A stretch of 10,201 nucleotides of DNA, from NCBI GenBank assembly GCA_048882325.1, contig JBHLRS010000068.1, positions 1-10,201 of the forward strand, given 5' to 3'. The notes below the pieces were generated by a model that was not told the origin of the DNA, ran no database searches, and worked only from the letters and a program-made list of their open reading frames with translations. Source of the DNA: Candidatus Thorarchaeota archaeon (GTDB lineage: Archaea; Asgardarchaeota; Thorarchaeia; Thorarchaeales; Thorarchaeaceae). The translations under genes and the position numbers were made by a program. Of this stretch, positions 2 through 7,447 are shown one piece after another (positions within the stretch are counted from its first letter, which is position 1; every line of letters begins with the position of its first letter).

Positions 2-2332
2 AATATCACAATTGACGGAATAACCAATATTCGGCTAGAGAATCGAACAAACCTGTGGTATGTGAATCTCACTGGGAAGTCTCTTGACCTTGGAATACAC
101 AGTATTGTGATTCGAGCCTGGGCTTATGGATACGAGTACAGTGAAACAGTAGAGTTAGTGACTGTAAACGAGGTTGATACAGACACCCTTGATGTTTCAT
201 GGAGCCCAACGAACCTTACCATAGAATATACAGACTCGCTCAATCTGACAGTAGACTATACATTCTACGACGGAGATGTACCAGCTTTCGCAATGGTCAA
301 TGTTTCAATCTCAGGACGCTTCTATGACCTGATGTACTCAGGAGGTTTCTGGAGAGTTTCAATTCCTGGATCGGATCTGAGCATCGGGCTTCACACTGCT
401 ACCATCACTGCATGGCTTTATGGTTATAGGTACCAAATGGATGTCACAACGAACATCAACGTCACTGAGGCGGCAAATTCGTTCCTCGTCACGTGGGAGC
501 CTTGGGACCTTGATGCATCCTATACTGACACTATCAATGCGTCAGTTGTGTATACTCAAGACTTTTCACCAATTGTTGGAGCGACTGTAAGACTCACCAT
601 CAACGGGACTCCACACCTATTGACCTATAGTGCGCTAGATGAAATGTGGCATTTCAGTATGCGAGCCAGTAACATAGGCCTGGGTATTTGGAATGTGACT
701 GTCACAGCTAACAAGACGGGGTATGCTGATGGCTGGGACTCAAGTTTCCTGTCAATATCTCCAGCAAACACCAATCTGACTGTTGTCACATCAGCTGTAG
801 CAATCTATTATGACGAGGGTGTGACAATCGACATCTACTACCAGCTACTTAATGATACTACAGTTCCAGGAGCAACACTGACTTTCACCATAGATGGTCT
901 TTCGCAGGTGGCAACTTGGGACATAGACCATTGGACATACACTGGTAGTGGAGATGCATTGGGTCTAGGAAACCACCTAGTCTATGTACATGTCGTTGCT
1001 TTTGGATTCCAAGCAGCCCAAAGGTCCATTGATATCAACGTGACTTCGATACCGACGTCTGTAACAACTCCTGCAACAATTGTGTCAATATTCGCATACG
1101 ACTCAGTCACAGTTTCATTCACCTGGATCGATGACAAAAATTCGGTCGCCATTGCTGGATTCATACCTGAAGTAAACTGGCCAGATTCATTCACAGTGGT
1201 TGACCTTGGTAATGGAACCTATAATGTCCTGGTAGACAGTACTGCATTACACACAGGACTCTATGAGCTTGAGGTCAATTTTGTAAGAATAGGTTATGTT
1301 AATGGAAGCCAAGTAGTGAATATCGAGCTATATTCGATACCGATTGCTTTGATCTTCCAGGATCAGATTGAACAGTTCGAAAACGAGTCGATTCTCATCG
1401 AAATCGAGATGCTGAACGCACCTCATGCGACCGTGATTGATTGGGGAGAGATTTTGATTGAGCTTGCAGGAGTTCAATACAATCTATTGTACGATTCATC
1501 ATCTGAAACCTACTCAGTAGAGATTTGGCTGAGCACATTGGCACCAGGAAACTACACACTAAACTTCACTGCCTCAGCGATTGACTGTCTTACTGTAATG
1601 GATGAGATTCAACTAGAGATTGCACCCAAAATCGAGTATGAGCTTGTTCTAGCAGTGGATGAAGAAGTACAAGCAGGACACCAGATTCAGATCACAGTTT
1701 TAGCCACATATGAATCAGGAACAGTTGATGGGATGCATCTCACACTCTACATCGTGGTTGAATCAGAGAGAAGTGTTCCAACACAACTTACTGAAACGAT
1801 AACAACAAATATTGAAGGTCTGGCTCTACTGGAGTTCTACGTTCCGTCGGAGGCTACTAGACTTACAATTTGGGCAGAGTTTGATGGTGCAATCGGGGAA
1901 TGGAACGCAGTATCAAACATTGTAATCAGAGAGGTTTCTCCTGCAGGGATAGATATACTCTCTTTCATCATCTCAATCTTCGAGGACCCAGTCACCTTAG
2001 TGTTCATCATAGGTGGCATCGGATTGCCGGTTGGAGGCCTGCTCCTCCGCCGTAGACGAAGGGGACCAAGGACTCCAATCGAACCAATTCCCACTGAAAC
2101 AATCGCTCCACCCGAACCAAGACCCAAAGCCCCAGCTGGCGAAATGGAAATTCTTCAGGACAAGATCAAAGAAAATCCTGTTGGCTTGACACGTGCTCAG
2201 GTAGCGCAGTCACTCGAGATCTCAAAAAGTAAAGCAGGTGCATTGGTGAGGAAACTTCTCGAATCAGATCCCAGATTTGAAGAAATCAAGGAAGGAAGAT
2301 TACGTCTAATTCGGTTTAGAGAAGACGAGTAA
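2..2332 (+). CDS. 5'-truncated large single-pass surface protein: tandem Ig-like repeats, TM helix, Pro-rich linker, C-terminal winged helix-turn-helix
   Basis: The frame is open from base 2 (NITIDGITNIRLENRTNLWYVNLTGK...), so the GTG at 62 is not the real start. ~95-aa beta-rich repeats end in G-x-(H/W/Y)-x-h-x-h-x-A-xxx-G(Y/F). About 19 N-x-S/T sequons by hand count, all N-terminal to the TM. TM VTLVFIIGGIGLPVGGLLL (1991-2047) is followed by RRRRR (2048-2062) and a Pro-rich linker. C-terminus ILQDKIKENPVGLTRAQVAQSLEISKSKAGALVRKLLESDPRFEEIKEGRLRLIRF fits a wHTH pattern. Confidence 0.9.
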   Translation, partial: NITIDGITNIRLENRTNLWYVNLTGKSLDLGIHSIVIRAWAYGYEYSETVELVTVNEVDTDTLDVSWSPTNLTIEYTDSLNLTVDYTFYDGDVPAFAMVNVSISGRFYDLMYSGGFWRVSIPGSDLSIGLHTATITAWLYGYRYQMDVTTNINVTEAANSFLVTWEPWDLDASYTDTINASVVYTQDFSPIVGATVRLTINGTPHLLTYSALDEMWHFSMRASNIGLGIWNVTVTANKTGYADGWDSSFLSISPANTNLTVVTSAVAIYYDEGVTIDIYYQLLNDTTVPGATLTFTIDGLSQVATWDIDHWTYTGSGDALGLGNHLVYVHVVAFGFQAAQRSIDINVTSIPTSVTTPATIVSIFAYDSVTVSFTWIDDKNSVAIAGFIPEVNWPDSFTVVDLGNGTYNVLVDSTALHTGLYELEVNFVRIGYVNGSQVVNIELYSIPIALIFQDQIEQFENESILIEIEMLNAPHATVIDWGEILIELAGVQYNLLYDSSSETYSVEIWLSTLAPGNYTLNFTASAIDCLTVMDEIQLEIAPKIEYELVLAVDEEVQAGHQIQITVLATYESGTVDGMHLTLYIVVESERSVPTQLTETITTNIEGLALLEFYVPSEATRLTIWAEFDGAIGEWNAVSNIVIREVSPAGIDILSFIISIFEDPVTLVFIIGGIGLPVGGLLLRRRRRGPRTPIEPIPTETIAPPEPRPKAPAGEMEILQDKIKENPVGLTRAQVAQSLEISKSKAGALVRKLLESDPRFEEIKEGRLRLIRFREDE
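180..1620 (+). repeat. About five degenerate protein-level Ig-like repeats (~285-300 nt each) in ORF1; boundaries approximate
   Basis: Recurrent end motifs GLHTATITAWLYGY, GIWNVTVTANKTGY, GNHLVYVHVVAFGF, GLYELEVNFVRIGY and GNYTLNFTASAID, plus a partial unit GIHSIVIRAWAYGY at the window start. No obvious nucleotide-level identity between units. Confidence 0.75.
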
Positions 2333-2390
2333 TCGAATTTCTGCGATAAATGCGATTGAATCAAATCAGGATAAGTATTTCAATAAAAAT

Positions 2391-2514
2391 TCAACAGAAC
2401 AAGAAAACTGGCACTAACTATCTGTTGATTCATCGCATCAACATGTAATAATCAACAAGTATAGTTGATATGTGCAGTTTACGTGCCACCAATCACATGT
2501 TGATGCATCGATGC
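2391..2514. promoter_or_regulatory. Inverted-repeat-rich intergenic element upstream of the 1514-aa gene (candidate structured leader RNA or operator array)
   Basis: Perfect 12-bp IR GCATCAACATGT (2435-2446)/ACATGTTGATGC (2495-2506). Imperfect hairpin pairing 2405-2430 with 2450-2480. 8-bp IR 2391-2398/2421-2428. Palindrome GCATCGATGC at 2505-2514. The repeats are directly visible; the regulatory role is inferred. Confidence 0.45.
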
Positions 2515-2534
2515 TAGATAAATGAGGCTACAAA

Positions 2535-5500
2535 ATGAAACGGGTCTTAATTCCACTCTTGATACTTGCAATCATTCTTTCAGTCCCTTATGCAAGTCAA
2601 ATCAACCAATCCCCAATAGAAGATATTGATTTAGACCGACCTGAAGCGGATATTACGACCCTGTCAGCTGCAGGAGCTAGTGGTAGCAACATTGTTACAT
2701 TGCAATACATGTCGAGAGCACTAAGTGGAAATCAGTTTGGCATTTTCAACTCCTACACCGATTCGTCTCACAATGGAGTTATAGATCTCTCAAGCTATCA
2801 GGTTTCAGGATGGACACTATATGCAGTAGATGTGTCTGCCACAGGGATAGCGGCAACTGCTGAAAGAGTTTCATTGAATGTTATTAAGAACAATGACATA
2901 ATAATAGAGAATGACACTCTTGGTAGTTCTCTAACTACTGATGCCCTCTATCAAGCATTTTACAATTTACCTCATGATGGAAAACTAGAGAACTATAGTA
3001 TAACATACTCTTCACCATATTATCAACCAAGTCAGCTAGGATATGCGTTTATAGTGATTCGGAGTGATTATGCAAGTTTGAGTGCAAATGAAACCAGTTT
3101 CATTTCCCCCTTTATTCAGACTCTCTCAGACACCGTTGTTACCCACGATGTTTCAGCAGATAATGCAATCCTGAATGCAAGTACATACTACTATACGGTG
3201 ATTGATGGCACTGGAATGACTGGACAATTCGCAGCTGGTCAATGGTGGTTCAACAAGATATTCTGGCGGGCTGAAGATTCCTCAACTAATCCCACAGGTT
3301 ATCATCTGTGGGATGACAACAACTGGTATCTGTATCAGGGAGCTTTCCAACGCGAAGCAGATCTCAATTACACCTACACTCCTTGGAACAAGACTTCCGG
3401 TGCACCACTTACCTACCCCTCCGCTGAGTCTATATCTCTCAATGGCAACTCAACTCCTCTTGCTGGAACCACCTGGTCATTCTCATTAGGCAGAAACATC
3501 ACACAACTAACTTTCCAGTCAAACCAGTCAGTGATAATCGACTACAACATCACTCTATGGTATAGAGAGAATGGTATTGCAAGTACAACTTGGAGTGCTC
3601 AGACACCAGGTGCAAGTGTTGAGTGGAACGCCACCACAACTATCTCATATCCTGCATTATCTGGAATTCTAGTGAGATTTCTTGATTATACAGTGCAAAC
3701 AGACTGGACTCCAATAGCCTTGTACAACGGAACTAATTTGGTATTAGGTACTCACACGAAAATTGGAACAACTGTTACATGTACAGATATGACGGATGGA
3801 ACATGGAGATTGTCATCATCCGCTCCAAACTATGTCGGTAATATTGCCTTGAGCGGTGTCACAAAGGGTAAGGTCAGTCATCTGACAGATATGACCATCA
3901 ACGCCACGATAGAAGATAGCGGCAAAACACCAATGACTGGGGGTACCACAAACCTCACTGTTCTACGAGGCATAAGCAGTGTCTATAGTCCTGCAGTGAT
4001 ACCAGCATCTGCGGGATTGGCCAGTTTCTTCTGGGACATCAATGCCACAACTTGGAATGGTACGCACTCAATAGAGGTCTTCTGGACCAATGGACTTGAA
4101 GCGGGATACAACTTGACAGAGGTGTTTGTCTATCACCCAACAACTCTAGTAGCAGATGACGCCTTCATCAACGCCTATGCTGAGAACAGTTTTGGAATTG
4201 GTGTGAACTTCGATCGCAATTGGACTCTGATGGGTCTTGATGGAACCTATGCAGCTGTAACATACTCGTTCGACGGTGGTGCTAACACGAATCTTACTGA
4301 CCAGACTGGAGGTAGATGGACTGCAACAGTATCTACAGCAGGAAAGACTGACGGTACATATCTGCTCTATGTCTATGCTGAGGGATTTGCTCTTGAGAAT
4401 CAGAGCCTTATGATTACGGTAGACCTTGTTTTTCAGACACAAGCGCTTAACATTAGCTGGTCAAATACCAATGATATAGAGTATCTTGAATATACCAACC
4501 TCTCTGTCACCTATCGATTCATGAATGACACAAGAGTTGCAGGGGCCACAGTCACAGTTACATTCCAGAGTCAGACCTATCCAATGACCTGGGATCCATT
4601 GACAAAAACCTACTGGATTGCACTGACAGGTGAGAATTTCACAGGAGTTCCAGGCACGTTCAATTTGAATGTCACTGCAACAAGAGTGGGTTTTGAGTCA
4701 CAGACTGATAATACAATCACAATCACAATAGGAAGTCAAACTGGAGAAGTTTTCAGTGTGACATACAACCCAGGAACTCTGAACATTTCGTACATTGAAA
4801 CTCTGTTTATTCAAGTCACCTATGACTACAATTCTTCACCAATTATGAGTAACACCGTGGTGCGGGTCCTCTTCAATGGGTCAGCTCCTGTTGACCTTGT
4901 TTACAATGCAACCTCATTGAAGTGGGAAACCACACTATTGGGTAGCAACTACTTCGGAGCTTGGGATATCATTGTAAGAGCCACAGCCACTGGTTATACC
5001 ACCCGTGATGATAACAGGATTTTCATTGTGCATGAGGACATCCCATTCATAGACAGTGACATGCCTGGATATCATGTAATAACTGATTATGACACCAGTG
5101 TGGCTTTTTCGATCTTTGTCACCGATTCAACTGGTAGTCCAATCAGTGATGCTAATGTATCGTTTACAGCCTTTGGCTCATTCAGGTTCAACACTACTGG
5201 TAATGGTGGAGAATATGCATTTTCGATTTCTCCATGGACAACACCGGGACACCATGTGTTTACTGTAACTGTCGAGAGGACAGGATACACCACTCGCCAA
5301 CTGACTCTCAACATCACAGTAAATGCTACAACATCTATATCATTCGAAATCAGTTCATATGATGAGTATGAGCAGTGGGACCTTACAATCAATGTGTTGT
5401 ATCGGGATAGTGAACATCTAACACCTATTCTCGATGCTGTTGTGAACGTCACCATTGATGGTACTGTTTATCCTTGCCAGTATGTGGGTCCCTTCTATCA

Positions 5501-7079
5501 AGTCAATGTGACTTTGGACTTGGCACCTGGTTCATACATAATGTATGCATCTGGTTCTGCACAGTTTGCAAATTCAGAAACCAATCAGGCAGACCTGATT
5601 GTAGAAGCAAAAGATGTGGTGCATATCCAAATCGTATTTGAACCACCTCAAGTAGTTGCAGGAGAACTCATGGTGGTTCGTGCAACTCTCATCAACAATG
5701 CAACATTGGATGCAGTATCAGGTATTGACATACACTTTGCAATCTCAATCTTCTATGCAAATGGAACCGTCCTTACCTACGATGATGCAAGTCAGATGGA
5801 TAGAACTAATAACGAGGGTATAGCCACCTATAGCTTCGAGATTCCTGAAGGACAGATTGAATCGCTATCAGCCACAGCTACATACGATGGCGAACGCGAA
5901 ATTTGGGGTACATCGACCACTAAAACTACTGGTGTCACTGTTGGAATTCTATCACTCCTTTTCTCATTCCTTATGAGTGACATTGGACTCATGATCATCC
6001 TTTCATTTGTTGTCTTGGGAATCGTGGCTGCGGCATATAACCGTGGAGTGAAGCCTAAGAAGAAGGCTGCAAAACGCAGTCTAGAGAATCAACTTCATAT
6101 GTTCAAAGACCTTGAAACAGTTCAACACTTCATGGCTGTTTATCTTGACAGAGGAACATGCGTCTTTTATCATCCCTTCACTGAGGACAGAATCCAGCCA
6201 GACTTAATCAGTGGATTCATTGCTGCCATCACCAGTGTCTATGGTGAGATTAAGGGAGATGGCGTCAGGGGAACTCTAGAGGAGATTCAGTATCACGGAT
6301 TACGACTCAACAGCTACAGTGGGCAATACATCATTGGCATCCTCATACTTGAGGGTGAGATGACACCACTTCTCAGGGAGAGACTTCAGTTCTTCGTAGA
6401 GTTGTTTGAGAACCAATACGATCAGGACCTTGATGGTTGGACAGGACTCGTCGACTGTTTTGATCCAGAATGGGTTGTTTCGACCCTGAACTCAGCCTTC
6501 AACTATGCTTGGCACCTGCCTCACAGGTTTGGTCCAACTCAGAAGGTGACTAAGACTGACGCAAAGATTCTGGACTATATTGGAGCTGTCCGTGATGACA
6601 GGAGTGAGTTCTATATTAAAGATCTTCTAACACCCCTTGCTGAAATGTTAGAGAAGACTGAGGCAGAGGTATTGGACCGACTTTTGTTTCTCCAAGACAG
6701 AGGGGTTATTGTGCCAATCGGAATTCAAACAATTCTCCAGCGACAAGGACTGGCATTAGTGAACGGGTCTGAACAACCAATTGCTGCACCTCCTCTAGTA
6801 GTCGAAGAACCCACTACAGTTGACGAGGGACCAAGGCCTGAAGAAGAACTACAGTTTGATGAGTTCGAAGAAGAACTAGTGGAGGAATCCAAGGCCGAAG
6901 TAGTTGAGGAGCCAGAACCTAAAGAAGACGCAATGGAATCTTTTGTCCAAGATGTCGAATCCCTTCTTACTGAACAAGCTAAAACAGAAGAGGAGGAGGA
7001 CATTGACGAGGAAGAAGATGAGCTTGCCAAGTTTGCGAAGGAACTGAGAGAGAAGATTGGGGAAGACGAGGACAACTAA
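2535..7079 (+). CDS. Type I membrane protein: signal peptide, beta-rich head, ~7 Ig-like units, TM, cytoplasmic longin-like domain, winged-helix-like domain, acidic tail
   Basis: Signal peptide MKRVLIPLLILAIILSVPYA. Thr/Ser/Asn-rich ectodomain with many sequons. TM IGLMIILSFVVLGIVAAAY (~5982-6038, aa ~1150-1168) followed by basic KPKKKAAKR. Segment QHFMAVYLDRGTCVFYHPF...DLISGFIAAITSVYGEI...LEEIQYHGLRLNSYSGQYIIGILIL...LRERLQFFVELFENQY shows the beta-beta-alpha-beta-beta-beta-alpha order of longin domains. EFYIKDLL...EKTEAEVLDRLLFLQDRGVIVPI is wH-like. E/D-rich C-terminus. Confidence 0.9.
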   Translation: MKRVLIPLLILAIILSVPYASQINQSPIEDIDLDRPEADITTLSAAGASGSNIVTLQYMSRALSGNQFGIFNSYTDSSHNGVIDLSSYQVSGWTLYAVDVSATGIAATAERVSLNVIKNNDIIIENDTLGSSLTTDALYQAFYNLPHDGKLENYSITYSSPYYQPSQLGYAFIVIRSDYASLSANETSFISPFIQTLSDTVVTHDVSADNAILNASTYYYTVIDGTGMTGQFAAGQWWFNKIFWRAEDSSTNPTGYHLWDDNNWYLYQGAFQREADLNYTYTPWNKTSGAPLTYPSAESISLNGNSTPLAGTTWSFSLGRNITQLTFQSNQSVIIDYNITLWYRENGIASTTWSAQTPGASVEWNATTTISYPALSGILVRFLDYTVQTDWTPIALYNGTNLVLGTHTKIGTTVTCTDMTDGTWRLSSSAPNYVGNIALSGVTKGKVSHLTDMTINATIEDSGKTPMTGGTTNLTVLRGISSVYSPAVIPASAGLASFFWDINATTWNGTHSIEVFWTNGLEAGYNLTEVFVYHPTTLVADDAFINAYAENSFGIGVNFDRNWTLMGLDGTYAAVTYSFDGGANTNLTDQTGGRWTATVSTAGKTDGTYLLYVYAEGFALENQSLMITVDLVFQTQALNISWSNTNDIEYLEYTNLSVTYRFMNDTRVAGATVTVTFQSQTYPMTWDPLTKTYWIALTGENFTGVPGTFNLNVTATRVGFESQTDNTITITIGSQTGEVFSVTYNPGTLNISYIETLFIQVTYDYNSSPIMSNTVVRVLFNGSAPVDLVYNATSLKWETTLLGSNYFGAWDIIVRATATGYTTRDDNRIFIVHEDIPFIDSDMPGYHVITDYDTSVAFSIFVTDSTGSPISDANVSFTAFGSFRFNTTGNGGEYAFSISPWTTPGHHVFTVTVERTGYTTRQLTLNITVNATTSISFEISSYDEYEQWDLTINVLYRDSEHLTPILDAVVNVTIDGTVYPCQYVGPFYQVNVTLDLAPGSYIMYASGSAQFANSETNQADLIVEAKDVVHIQIVFEPPQVVAGELMVVRATLINNATLDAVSGIDIHFAISIFYANGTVLTYDDASQMDRTNNEGIATYSFEIPEGQIESLSATATYDGEREIWGTSTTKTTGVTVGILSLLFSFLMSDIGLMIILSFVVLGIVAAAYNRGVKPKKKAAKRSLENQLHMFKDLETVQHFMAVYLDRGTCVFYHPFTEDRIQPDLISGFIAAITSVYGEIKGDGVRGTLEEIQYHGLRLNSYSGQYIIGILILEGEMTPLLRERLQFFVELFENQYDQDLDGWTGLVDCFDPEWVVSTLNSAFNYAWHLPHRFGPTQKVTKTDAKILDYIGAVRDDRSEFYIKDLLTPLAEMLEKTEAEVLDRLLFLQDRGVIVPIGIQTILQRQGLALVNGSEQPIAAPPLVVEEPTTVDEGPRPEEELQFDEFEEELVEESKAEVVEEPEPKEDAMESFVQDVESLLTEQAKTEEEEDIDEEEDELAKFAKELREKIGEDEDN
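3867..5940 (+). repeat. About seven degenerate Ig-like units in the ORF2 stalk; boundaries approximate
   Basis: End motifs GTHSIEVFWTNG, GTYLLYVYAEGF, GTFNLNVTATRVGF, GAWDIIVRATATGY, GHHVFTVTVERTGY and GSYIMYASGSAQF at ~95-100 aa spacing. Same repeat type as in ORF1. Confidence 0.75.
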
Positions 7080-7135: not shown

Positions 7136-7447
7136 ATGCCTTGGGCAGTAGACAATTACAACATACTTGACGGACGCATACTGCGTGTTGAGATCACTGT
7201 TCCTTTGATGGAGTTCATGTATCTCAACATTGATGATGTAAAGACAGCATGGATCAAATTCTTGGGTCAATTCATCTCTGAGCAACCAGGGATAGACATG
7301 TCCTGGGAGATGGCACCACGAGATGACAATGCTTTGGTCACTCTCAAGATTGCTAAGACTGGTGACCTCCCCGAGTTCAGTCCCGAGGAAGCAATAGGCG
7401 CTCTGGACGCAGTTGATGCTTTGTTCGATAATGCAGGAATTAGCTAA
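7136..7447 (+). CDS. Small acidic hypothetical protein (103 aa), predicted alpha/beta and soluble
   Basis: ATG start 56 nt after the ORF2 stop, with purine-rich GAGGACAGGAG upstream (7113-7123). Protein-like amphipathic patterning. Fills the gap up to the convergent gene. Family not recognised. Confidence 0.75.
   Translation: MPWAVDNYNILDGRILRVEITVPLMEFMYLNIDDVKTAWIKFLGQFISEQPGIDMSWEMAPRDDNALVTLKIAKTGDLPEFSPEEAIGALDAVDALFDNAGIS

Follow-up and report, generated by a model that had tools for sequence, protein, structure and literature searches.

The 10,201-nucleotide (nt) window analysed here is an entire contig (JBHLRS010000068.1, hereafter C68) of a metagenome-assembled genome (MAG) of Candidatus Thorarchaeota archaeon (3.6 Mb, 93% complete), and its left 7 kb are filled by two large open reading frames (ORFs) on the forward strand, ORF1 (2-2332) and ORF2 (2535-7079), which code for whole-length paralogs. 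Once ORF1 is joined to its 5′ part, which lies on another contig (C8), the two proteins align over ~1040 residues with 37% identity (E 3e-174). Common to both are a lectin-like/Ig head of ~560 amino acids (aa), Ig-like repeats, a membrane-proximal (MP) domain, a kinked hydrophobic anchor and one transmembrane (TM) helix. An initial annotation, made from the letters of the window, had described the shared part as a stalk and anchor; this cassette is shared, but the whole ectodomain is homologous, and not the stalk alone. Past the membrane the two proteins diverge as that annotation had proposed, ORF1 ending in a winged helix (wH) only and ORF2 in a longin domain, a winged helix and an acidic tail. 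With somewhat better than even confidence, we favor the explanation that the gene of a giant surface protein was duplicated in tandem long ago, that the tail of ORF2 would dock a cytoplasmic partner and that ORF1 would be a decaying long-reach copy.

Ectodomains and membrane anchors of the paralogs

ORF1 is open at the contig start, where nt 1-77 of the window exactly match the final 77 nt of C8 (C8:115453-115529); across this overlap the frame stays open for 2696 codons further upstream, to a signal-peptide start. Within the window, ORF1 encodes only the last 776 aa of the long paralog; its 5′ part (~2694 aa) lies at C8:107372-115529, and the joined protein has 3470 aa. Genome-wide, a head without an anchor is found only in the ORF at the end of C8, and an anchor without a head only in the ORF at the start of C68. 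The long-gene orthologues of seven relatives encode 2883-3371 aa, and the genes for a CN hydrolase and a DUF2299 protein precede the long gene in relatives, as they precede the ORF on C8. ORF2, the short paralog, is complete with 1514 aa, and its 114 homologues are named almost exclusively Thorarchaeota or Promethearchaeota.

A Sec-type signal peptide (2535-2600) precedes the head of ORF2 (residues 28-600; 2616-4334), which was modeled by AlphaFold2 (AF2; pLDDT 85.7) and combines a lectin-like jelly roll, beta-sandwiches and macroglobulin/invasin-like Ig domains. The model reaches VIA Z-scores of 11-12 to macroglobulin (MG) domains, to invasin/intimin and to lectin-like domains of phage tail tips and of Cwp84; these Foldseek and VIA matches are generic (lectin-like, MG, Ig) and have low global TM-scores. 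No enzyme-like fold was seen by Foldseek and VIA in this whole-head model, whose domains were not folded singly. The heads of ORF1 and ORF2 are 45% identical, and in the whole genome only these two proteins combine a strong MP match with the head domain. Behind the head, ORF2 bears Ig-like/CarboxypepD_reg-like repeats (residues 601-1022; 4335-5600), which score 28.1 bits to CarboxypepD_reg, under its cut-off of 32.3. ORF1 bears at least 20 tandem Ig-like repeats, each of exactly 101 aa, a number that is uncertain and possibly wrong because the break between C8 and C68 falls within this repetitive sequence.

N-glycosylation sequons are enriched 2.3-fold over shuffled sequences in both ectodomains (100 vs. 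44 ± 6 in ORF1; 38 vs. 16 ± 3.5 in ORF2), and the tails carry none or one. As read from the sequence, each protein has a signal peptide, one TM helix near the C-terminus and a positive-inside flank, and its sequons are restricted to the ectodomain. The signal peptides, the basic flanks past the TM helices and the sequon pattern point to a type-I topology; therefore, ORF1 and ORF2 are predicted to be type-I single-pass, N-glycosylated surface proteins with cytoplasmic tails. Such very large, repeat-rich and sequon-enriched ectodomains, with a head resembling S-layer, MG and adhesin domains, would also suit a purely structural envelope, in which both proteins would be coat or sheath glycoproteins of an Asgard cell devoid of an S-layer and their tails would only anchor, sort or assemble them. 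The variable repeat number (2883-3470 aa in the long copy, 1480-2170 aa in the short type) fits this view, as does the persistence of long copies without any tail. On the other side stand the presence of just one gene copy in each genome, which sets the gene apart from abundant coat-protein families, and, in the cytoplasmic part, the strongest conservation of the whole protein, invariant Cys and His residues and a terminal motif (described below), which go beyond the needs of a passive anchor. On balance, a purely structural role seems rather unlikely to us.

The initial annotation had held that the last ectodomain units of ORF1 and ORF2 are alike and unlike the other repeats. Its coordinates for the two units are accurate, and all the motif pairs that it had listed occupy the same columns of a MAFFT alignment. 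The MP Ig-like domain comprises residues 537-648 of ORF1 (1610-1945) and 1023-1135 of ORF2 (5601-5939). The two domains are ~19-25% identical in the alignment, and a pairwise BLASTP comparison is weak on its own (E 0.002, 21% identity), as might be expected if they were no more alike than any two Ig-like repeats. However, a hidden Markov model (HMM) of the MP domain of the ORF2 family (>100 homologues) gives the last unit of ORF1 66.8-69.5 bits (E 9e-23 to 2e-19) and all other repeats of the 3470-aa protein at most 1.1 bits. The reciprocal HMM, constructed from seven ORF1-type orthologues only and without the window's own row, matches ORF2 solely at residues 1023-1136 (25.6 bits, E 6e-10). These profiles refute a merely generic Ig-repeat similarity, to which we attach next to no credence. 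Because they match only the last unit, in both directions, the MP unit is, on profile evidence, a distinct membrane-proximal domain, distantly Big_1/invasin/MG-like: in Pfam, Big_1 is matched by six of 32 members (best E 2e-6), Invasin_D3 by three and MG4 by six, the first member lying well under the cut-offs.

Between the MP domain and the membrane lies a hydrophobic segment that had been described as broken by an Asp just before the TM helix. The segment and the helix break occur in both families; the Asp is not conserved, and the alignment rules it out as a conserved charged feature. In the eight ORF1-type sequences, the break is without exception a Pro, with D, N or G before it, while in the ORF2 type it consists of S, then D, G, P or E, with a Gly two residues on. 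The juxtamembrane segment of ORF1 (residues 649-663; 1946-1990) ends in Asp-Pro; in ORF1-type proteins this segment bears indels and is nearly absent from two orthologues. It is followed by a Gly/Pro-rich TM helix (664-682) and a poly-Arg stop-transfer sequence (683-688; together 1991-2065), of which the positive-inside character predicts a cytoplasmic tail. The corresponding elements of ORF2 are found at 5940-6077 (juxtamembrane segment, residues 1136-1149; TM helix, 1150-1168; basic stop-transfer sequence, 1169-1181). Small-residue motifs are present in the TM helices of both proteins.

Cytoplasmic tails and their distribution

Residues 1180-1425 of ORF2 were modeled by AF2 from 35 homologues (pLDDT 81.8), and the assignments of a longin domain and a winged helix made in the initial annotation hold in this model. 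The longin-fold domain (residues ~1195-1326; 6117-6512) has its elements in the order beta-beta-alpha-beta-beta-beta-alpha(-alpha), that of the longin fold. Foldseek matches it to zeta-COP, sigma subunits of adaptor protein (AP) complexes, Fuzzy, TRAPP, Mon1-Ccz1 and MglB (probability 1.00, E 1.7e-4), and VIA (model residues 16-147) to Fuzzy (Z 12.7), AP-3 mu and the VAMP7 longin domain (11.6) and the Lokiarchaeota Roadblock-Longin protein 8yqg (11.2); the VIA longin matches, Sec22 and AP mu among them, span 117-132 residues at Z 12.7-11. A sequence search of the PDB with the profile of the cytoplasmic part of ORF2 gave nothing under E 0.05. A helical linker leads to the winged helix (residues ~1334-1404; 6534-6746), modeled as three helices and a strand (H-H-H-strand; VIA Z 8.8 over model residues 147-225); in Pfam, NirdL-like_HTH matches it below threshold in 16 of the 35 members, and HTH_24 and the MCM_C winged helix are weak matches as well.

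This eukaryote-like longin-wH module is the best-conserved part of ORF2, with a median identity of 68% vs. ~40% for the head and the MP domain. Both cytoplasmic cysteines and two histidines are conserved: C1209 and H1198 are invariant and C1308 and H1330 nearly so in the 35 aligned homologues (window ~6126-6524); judging from the alignment, this set could be a metal or redox site. The module is followed by an acidic disordered tail (6753-7076; 41 D/E in the last 94 aa), the composition of which is conserved across the family (median length 96 aa, 39% D+E). Most of its sequence is poorly conserved, apart from a motif at 6924-6968 (residues 1464-1478) that ends in DVESLL. The pattern [DE][VLI]E.L[LI] is shared by 84 of 121 tails in the family, usually at a distance of 8-53 aa from the C-terminus, vs. 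~1 (maximum 4) in 200 shuffles, and the ORF2 motif fits the eukaryotic acidic dileucine consensus, [DE]xxxL[LI].

The cytoplasmic part of ORF1 consists of a Pro-rich variable linker (residues 689-713; 2066-2140) and a C-terminal winged helix, wH1 (714-776; 2141-2329), which is unique to ORF1 in this genome and is the best-conserved part of the ORF1-type C-terminus (49.8% mean identity among orthologues vs. 17.6% in the linker). HTH_24 passes its cut-off of 21.9 bits in the tails of two orthologues, at 25.2 and 24.8 bits, and that of a third reaches 21.1; the tail of ORF1 itself matches only DUF7343 (13.7 bits), yet it aligns column for column with the orthologues. No sequence similarity was detected between the cytoplasmic parts of ORF1 and ORF2 by BLASTP or hhalign (probability 0.1%), and the link between them is drawn through intermediate architectures in relatives, not through direct hhalign.

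The distribution was surveyed in 87 genomes of the order, with 17 genera sampled. The MP/anchor cassette is present in 70 of these genomes and in all 17 genera, and the ORF2 type is a universal single-copy gene with the same distribution (70/87 genomes, 17/17 genera). The long type lies directly upstream of the short type, on the same strand, in 22 genomes from five genera (13 genomes of the window's own genus g1, four of g25, two each of g22 and g24 and one of g19), so that the tandem adjacency is conserved in relatives, while the other 12 genera, near-complete few-contig genomes among them, have the short type only. Across the five genera, the tails of the long copies are graded: full longin+wH in g19 (200 bits); longin+wH followed by wH1 in g24 (hhalign to the ORF2 module over 204 columns, E 8e-5); a degenerate longin domain (30-39 bits) with wH1 in g25; ~150 aa with wH1 in g22; and ~85 aa, wH1 only, in the own genus, two genomes of which have a stop codon directly past the TM helix and lack wH1. 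One of these tail-less copies is the closest relative (sister) of the window's long copy in the tree, and the complete losses are therefore independent. The initial annotation had seen exchangeable intracellular modules in the pair. Tails do vary across the Asgard family, but those of this pair were not exchanged, and module exchange between ORF1 and ORF2 is rejected: because the long-copy tails form a reduction series from genus to genus, the 'wH only' tail of ORF1 appears as a remnant. From these sequences, the simplest reading would be that a longin-wH(-wH) receptor was duplicated once and that the tail of the upstream copy then decayed step by step.

The winged helix of ORF1 has another possible meaning, namely that ORF1 is a membrane-tethered transcription regulator whose wH1 would bind DNA, either at the membrane, like ToxR and CadC, or after proteolytic release, like Notch and SREBP, and would report on the ectodomain. 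The orthologue matches of wH1 to models of DNA-binding winged helix-turn-helix domains (HTH_24, MarR_2, TrmB) are consistent with this, and so are its conservation where present and the Gly/Pro-rich TM helix of ORF1, such helices being known in some substrates of intramembrane proteases. Nevertheless, we consider it very improbable. The complete loss of wH1 in two genomes of the same genus, one of them closest to the window's copy, indicates that it is not essential; wH1 is the last remnant of a longin-wH-wH tail, and such modules are protein-binding in the eukaryotic counterparts ESCRT-II and NPRL2/3; moreover, the linker counts just ~25 aa, and a comparison of loci, which did not extend to three M28 peptidase genes 4-12 kb upstream on C8, revealed no linkage of a protease gene to the pair. 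ToxR and CadC resemble ORF1 in that one TM helix joins an extracytoplasmic domain to a cytoplasmic winged helix, but theirs is N-terminal, of the OmpR type and essential, whereas that of ORF1 lies at the C-terminus, is HTH_24/MarR-like, stems from a longin-wH tail and can be dispensed with in close relatives. With the orientation reversed and a winged helix of another type, ORF1 was not assigned to this class of one-component regulators.

The pair might also act as a heterodimeric receptor, in which the long and the short protein would associate through the MP domain and the juxtamembrane/TM region, the long one providing reach or ligand binding and the short one the sole output. The arrangement of the genes in 22 genomes of five genera, in tandem on one strand and a short spacer apart, is compatible with such a contact, and the small-residue motifs of the two TM helices could serve it. 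In addition, the long copy retains its MP/anchor cassette (65-111 bits) as its tail decays to nothing, which would be tolerable if a partner carried the output. The tandem position, however, is expected from duplication anyway, the MP domains of the pair are only distantly alike at ~19-25% identity, and the presence of the short copy only in 12 of the 17 genera implies that the short protein works alone. The heads bear on the same question. In a head tree, the long and short heads of L003, L004, L008, L012 and L018 are mutual nearest relatives (supports 97-100), while the window's own sub-lineage has separate long and short clades. This grouping by genome in four lineages (L003/L004, L008, L012, L018) suggests gene conversion, which might keep the heads of a heterodimer alike, or else repeated duplication. 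All in all, we find a heterodimer doubtful.

Gene neighborhood, genomic longin paralogs and the wider Asgard family

The gene order conserved in relatives is CN hydrolase, DUF2299, long gene, short gene, 103-aa ORF, LarA-like gene and VTT (VTT/DedA) gene. The spacer between ORF1 and ORF2 (2333-2534) is 202 nt long, and the corresponding spacers of relatives measure ~115-225 nt. A GAGG stands 8 nt before the ATG of ORF2, and no run of five or more T follows the ORF1 stop codon, features compatible with co-transcription of the two genes. A search of sequencing runs listed five DNA data sets, from two studies of sediment or other metagenomes and two of them possibly the source, and no RNA data set. 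At the upstream end (L011), three M28 peptidase paralogs with signal peptides (611, 626 and 620 aa; C8:95183-103254, forward strand) lie 4-12 kb before the long gene, with two unannotated ORFs between them.

An acidic ORF of 103 aa (7136-7447, forward strand) begins 56 nt past ORF2 and is a candidate third component of the system. It is a single-copy gene in 70 of the 87 genomes and all 17 genera, has a mean column identity of 70%, and directly follows the ORF2-type gene, in the same orientation, nearly everywhere that both share a contig, G042 and G025 being the exceptions. Searches of Pfam, PDB sequences and Atlas gave no match, nor did hhalign to longin. We regard its product as a candidate partner of the ORF2 tail.

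Longin-wH modules are not limited to this locus: the genome holds ~10 paralogs, one of which is fused to an Arf/Rag-like GTPase while two sit on multi-pass membrane domains. The former (L023; C2:180370-182340, reverse strand; 657 aa) consists, from the N-terminus on, of an Arf/Ras/Rag-like GTPase domain (Pfam Arf, 66 bits), a longin-like domain (24.7 bits to the ORF2-tail profile) and wH-like segments; apart from this indirect connection, nothing seen here ties the longin family to a GTPase. The latter two are encoded in tandem (L027; C17:51794-54025, reverse strand), have ~5-7 hydrophobic segments and match the ORF2 longin profile with their C-termini (22-26 bits). A genomic paralog shows sub-threshold matches to Fuz_longin_1 (23.0 vs. 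26.1 bits) and Robl_LC7, and a paralog at C10:85866 a sub-threshold match to HTH_NPRL3 (20.5 vs. 27.2 bits).

Beyond the order, a profile of the MP domain and anchor matches 1531 representatives at E ≤ 1e-3, 359 of them at E ≤ 1e-10, and the family occurs in Thor-, Loki- and Helarchaeota. Members that cover the region from the MP domain through the TM helix end in longin+wH with an acidic tail, in wH1 only, in hybrids of these two, in a degenerate longin+wH, in TPR-like repeats of ~500 aa, in longin with TPR-like repeats, in a short coiled coil, or in nothing. Named members with tails other than those of Thorarchaeota come from Lokiarchaeota and Helarchaeota MAGs, and many of them lack the Thor head domain. 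The modular family with a conserved MP/anchor cassette and variable tails that the initial annotation had envisaged is thus real at the level of an Asgard superfamily. Two members, P0229 and P0175, are filed under the bacterial name 'Candidatus Deferrimicrobium sp.'; both have Asgard-type tails and one has a Thor-type head, and the label probably reflects an error of MAG binning.

Comparison with known systems and significance

Dimers of longin or roadblock domains serve as GTPase platforms in bacteria and eukaryotes alike, and Asgard archaea are known to possess them (PMC10933270; bioRxiv 10.1101/2020.10.19.343400); the handling of small GTPases is characteristic of longin platforms (PMC10933270). 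Comparative papers also describe NPRL2-like longin domains fused to signaling domains in Thor genomes (Liu et al., 10.1101/2020.10.19.343400) and note Asgard longin fusions with TPR, Ig-like, HTH and signaling domains (Liu et al.; Makarova et al., PMC11188069; Tran et al., PMC10933270). The present proteins resemble the Asgard NPRL2-like longin/roadblock proteins in phylum and fold class, with longin followed by wH and many paralogs, including the Arf/Rag-like GTPase fusion. The passages considered in the three papers (10.1101/2020.10.19.343400, PMC11188069, PMC10933270), their supplementary asCOG tables lying outside the comparison, contain no single-pass surface protein with a glycosylated ectodomain of ~1150-3300 aa, a dedicated MP/anchor cassette and a longin-wH tail, and no long/short tandem pair. 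Likewise, a literature search that did not cover these tables returned no described single-pass longin-tailed Asgard receptor or long/short pair. To be counted as new are the whole-length paralogy, the contig join, the MP cassette, the long/short tandem with its series of tail decay, the 103-aa neighbor and the terminal motif.

Among characterized proteins, NPRL2/NPRL3 (Npr2/Npr3; GATOR1/SEACIT) have, like the modeled ORF2 tail, a longin domain at the N-terminus and helical and winged-helix elements behind it. However, they are soluble proteins that work together with DEPDC5 as a Rag GTPase-activating protein (GAP), whereas ORF2 is predicted to be membrane-anchored, has no NPR2, NPR3 or HTH_NPRL3 match and finds its best folds in Fuzzy, AP mu/sigma and VAMP7. 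The AP adaptors are approached from two sides, by the top folds of the ORF2 tail (AP sigma/mu, zeta-COP) and by its dileucine-like motif, though this is resemblance only and the motif lies in a predicted helix-like stretch. Giant Ig-repeat adhesins, of the intimin/invasin type and others (Big_1, Invasin_D3, macroglobulin), share the tandem Ig rod with a lectin-like distal head, and the MP and head domains match intimin, invasin and MG domains by structure and weakly by sequence; bacterial adhesins, however, have an N-terminal beta-barrel or a cell-wall sorting anchor and no cytoplasmic signaling module, whereas the proteins described here have a C-terminal TM helix and a folded tail.

According to the explanation that we favor, the ancestral gene would have encoded a giant N-glycosylated type-I single-pass surface protein of Thorarchaeota, and its tandem duplication would be old. 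The exterior of this ancestor would have comprised a signal peptide, the ~560-aa lectin-like/Ig head, Ig-like repeats and the MP Ig-like domain, and its anchor and interior a juxtamembrane segment with a helix break, a TM helix, a basic stop-transfer sequence and a longin domain with one or more winged helices. ORF2, found in every sampled genus, would be the core gene of the family, in which the constrained longin-wH module and the acidic dileucine-like motif would most likely serve to bind a partner in the cytoplasm; all characterized longin platforms suggest, by analogy, that this partner may be a small GTPase or a GTPase regulator. On this view, ORF2 would be a receptor for adhesion or sensing, linking the cell surface with the interior. 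In ORF1, the ectodomain would have expanded to ~3000-3500 aa by means of the 101-aa repeats while the cytoplasmic module was being lost, resulting in a long-reach adhesin or coat component that would no longer carry the main output. A fast-evolving glycosylated exterior, combined with a slowly evolving longin-wH interior and a terminal motif, is indeed the pattern to be expected if an adhesin or receptor has a partner docked to its tail.

Several points weigh against this explanation. Longin domains also serve roles unrelated to GTPases, such as SNARE regulation and coat adaptors, and the class of the partner is for this reason a guess. The Pfam models longin and Robl_LC7 do not match ORF2 or its 34 homologues at E ≤ 1, ORF2 gives not even a weak match to longin, NPR2 or NPR3 and none to HTH_NPRL3, and no gene for a GTPase, a guanine nucleotide exchange factor or a GAP is found among the neighbors of the locus. 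The conserved adjacency of the genes could reflect a general conservation of gene order in the region and not function. Finally, wH1 is, to judge from its conservation, under purifying selection where present, and a 'remnant' is not equivalent to something useless.

A bolder version would make ORF2-type proteins outside-in adhesion receptors whose tails handle a small GTPase, with the dileucine-like motif read by a longin-fold module (their own, that of a neighboring molecule or the 103-aa protein) and the long paralog serving as an output-less co-receptor. We consider this quite unlikely; if true, it would represent a prokaryotic forerunner both of the recognition of cargo tails by adaptor complexes and of GTPase-coupled surface receptors.

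To our knowledge, the Thorarchaeota cell surface has been seen by no one. Asgard archaea encode numerous small GTPases and longin/roadblock proteins for which we know of no cellular role. A surface glycoprotein that is a single-copy core component and bears a strongly constrained longin-wH tail, as predicted here, would provide a concrete and testable point of contact between such modules, the membrane and the exterior. The terminal motif and the 103-aa neighbor name candidate interaction partners, and the long/short pair constitutes a natural experiment in which one ectodomain design occurs with and without a cytoplasmic module across genera. Even if nothing binds the tail, these proteins are still likely to be major determinants of the Thorarchaeota cell surface, and on the strength of sequence comparison and structural models the pair stands as a candidate link between that surface and GTPase-type signaling.

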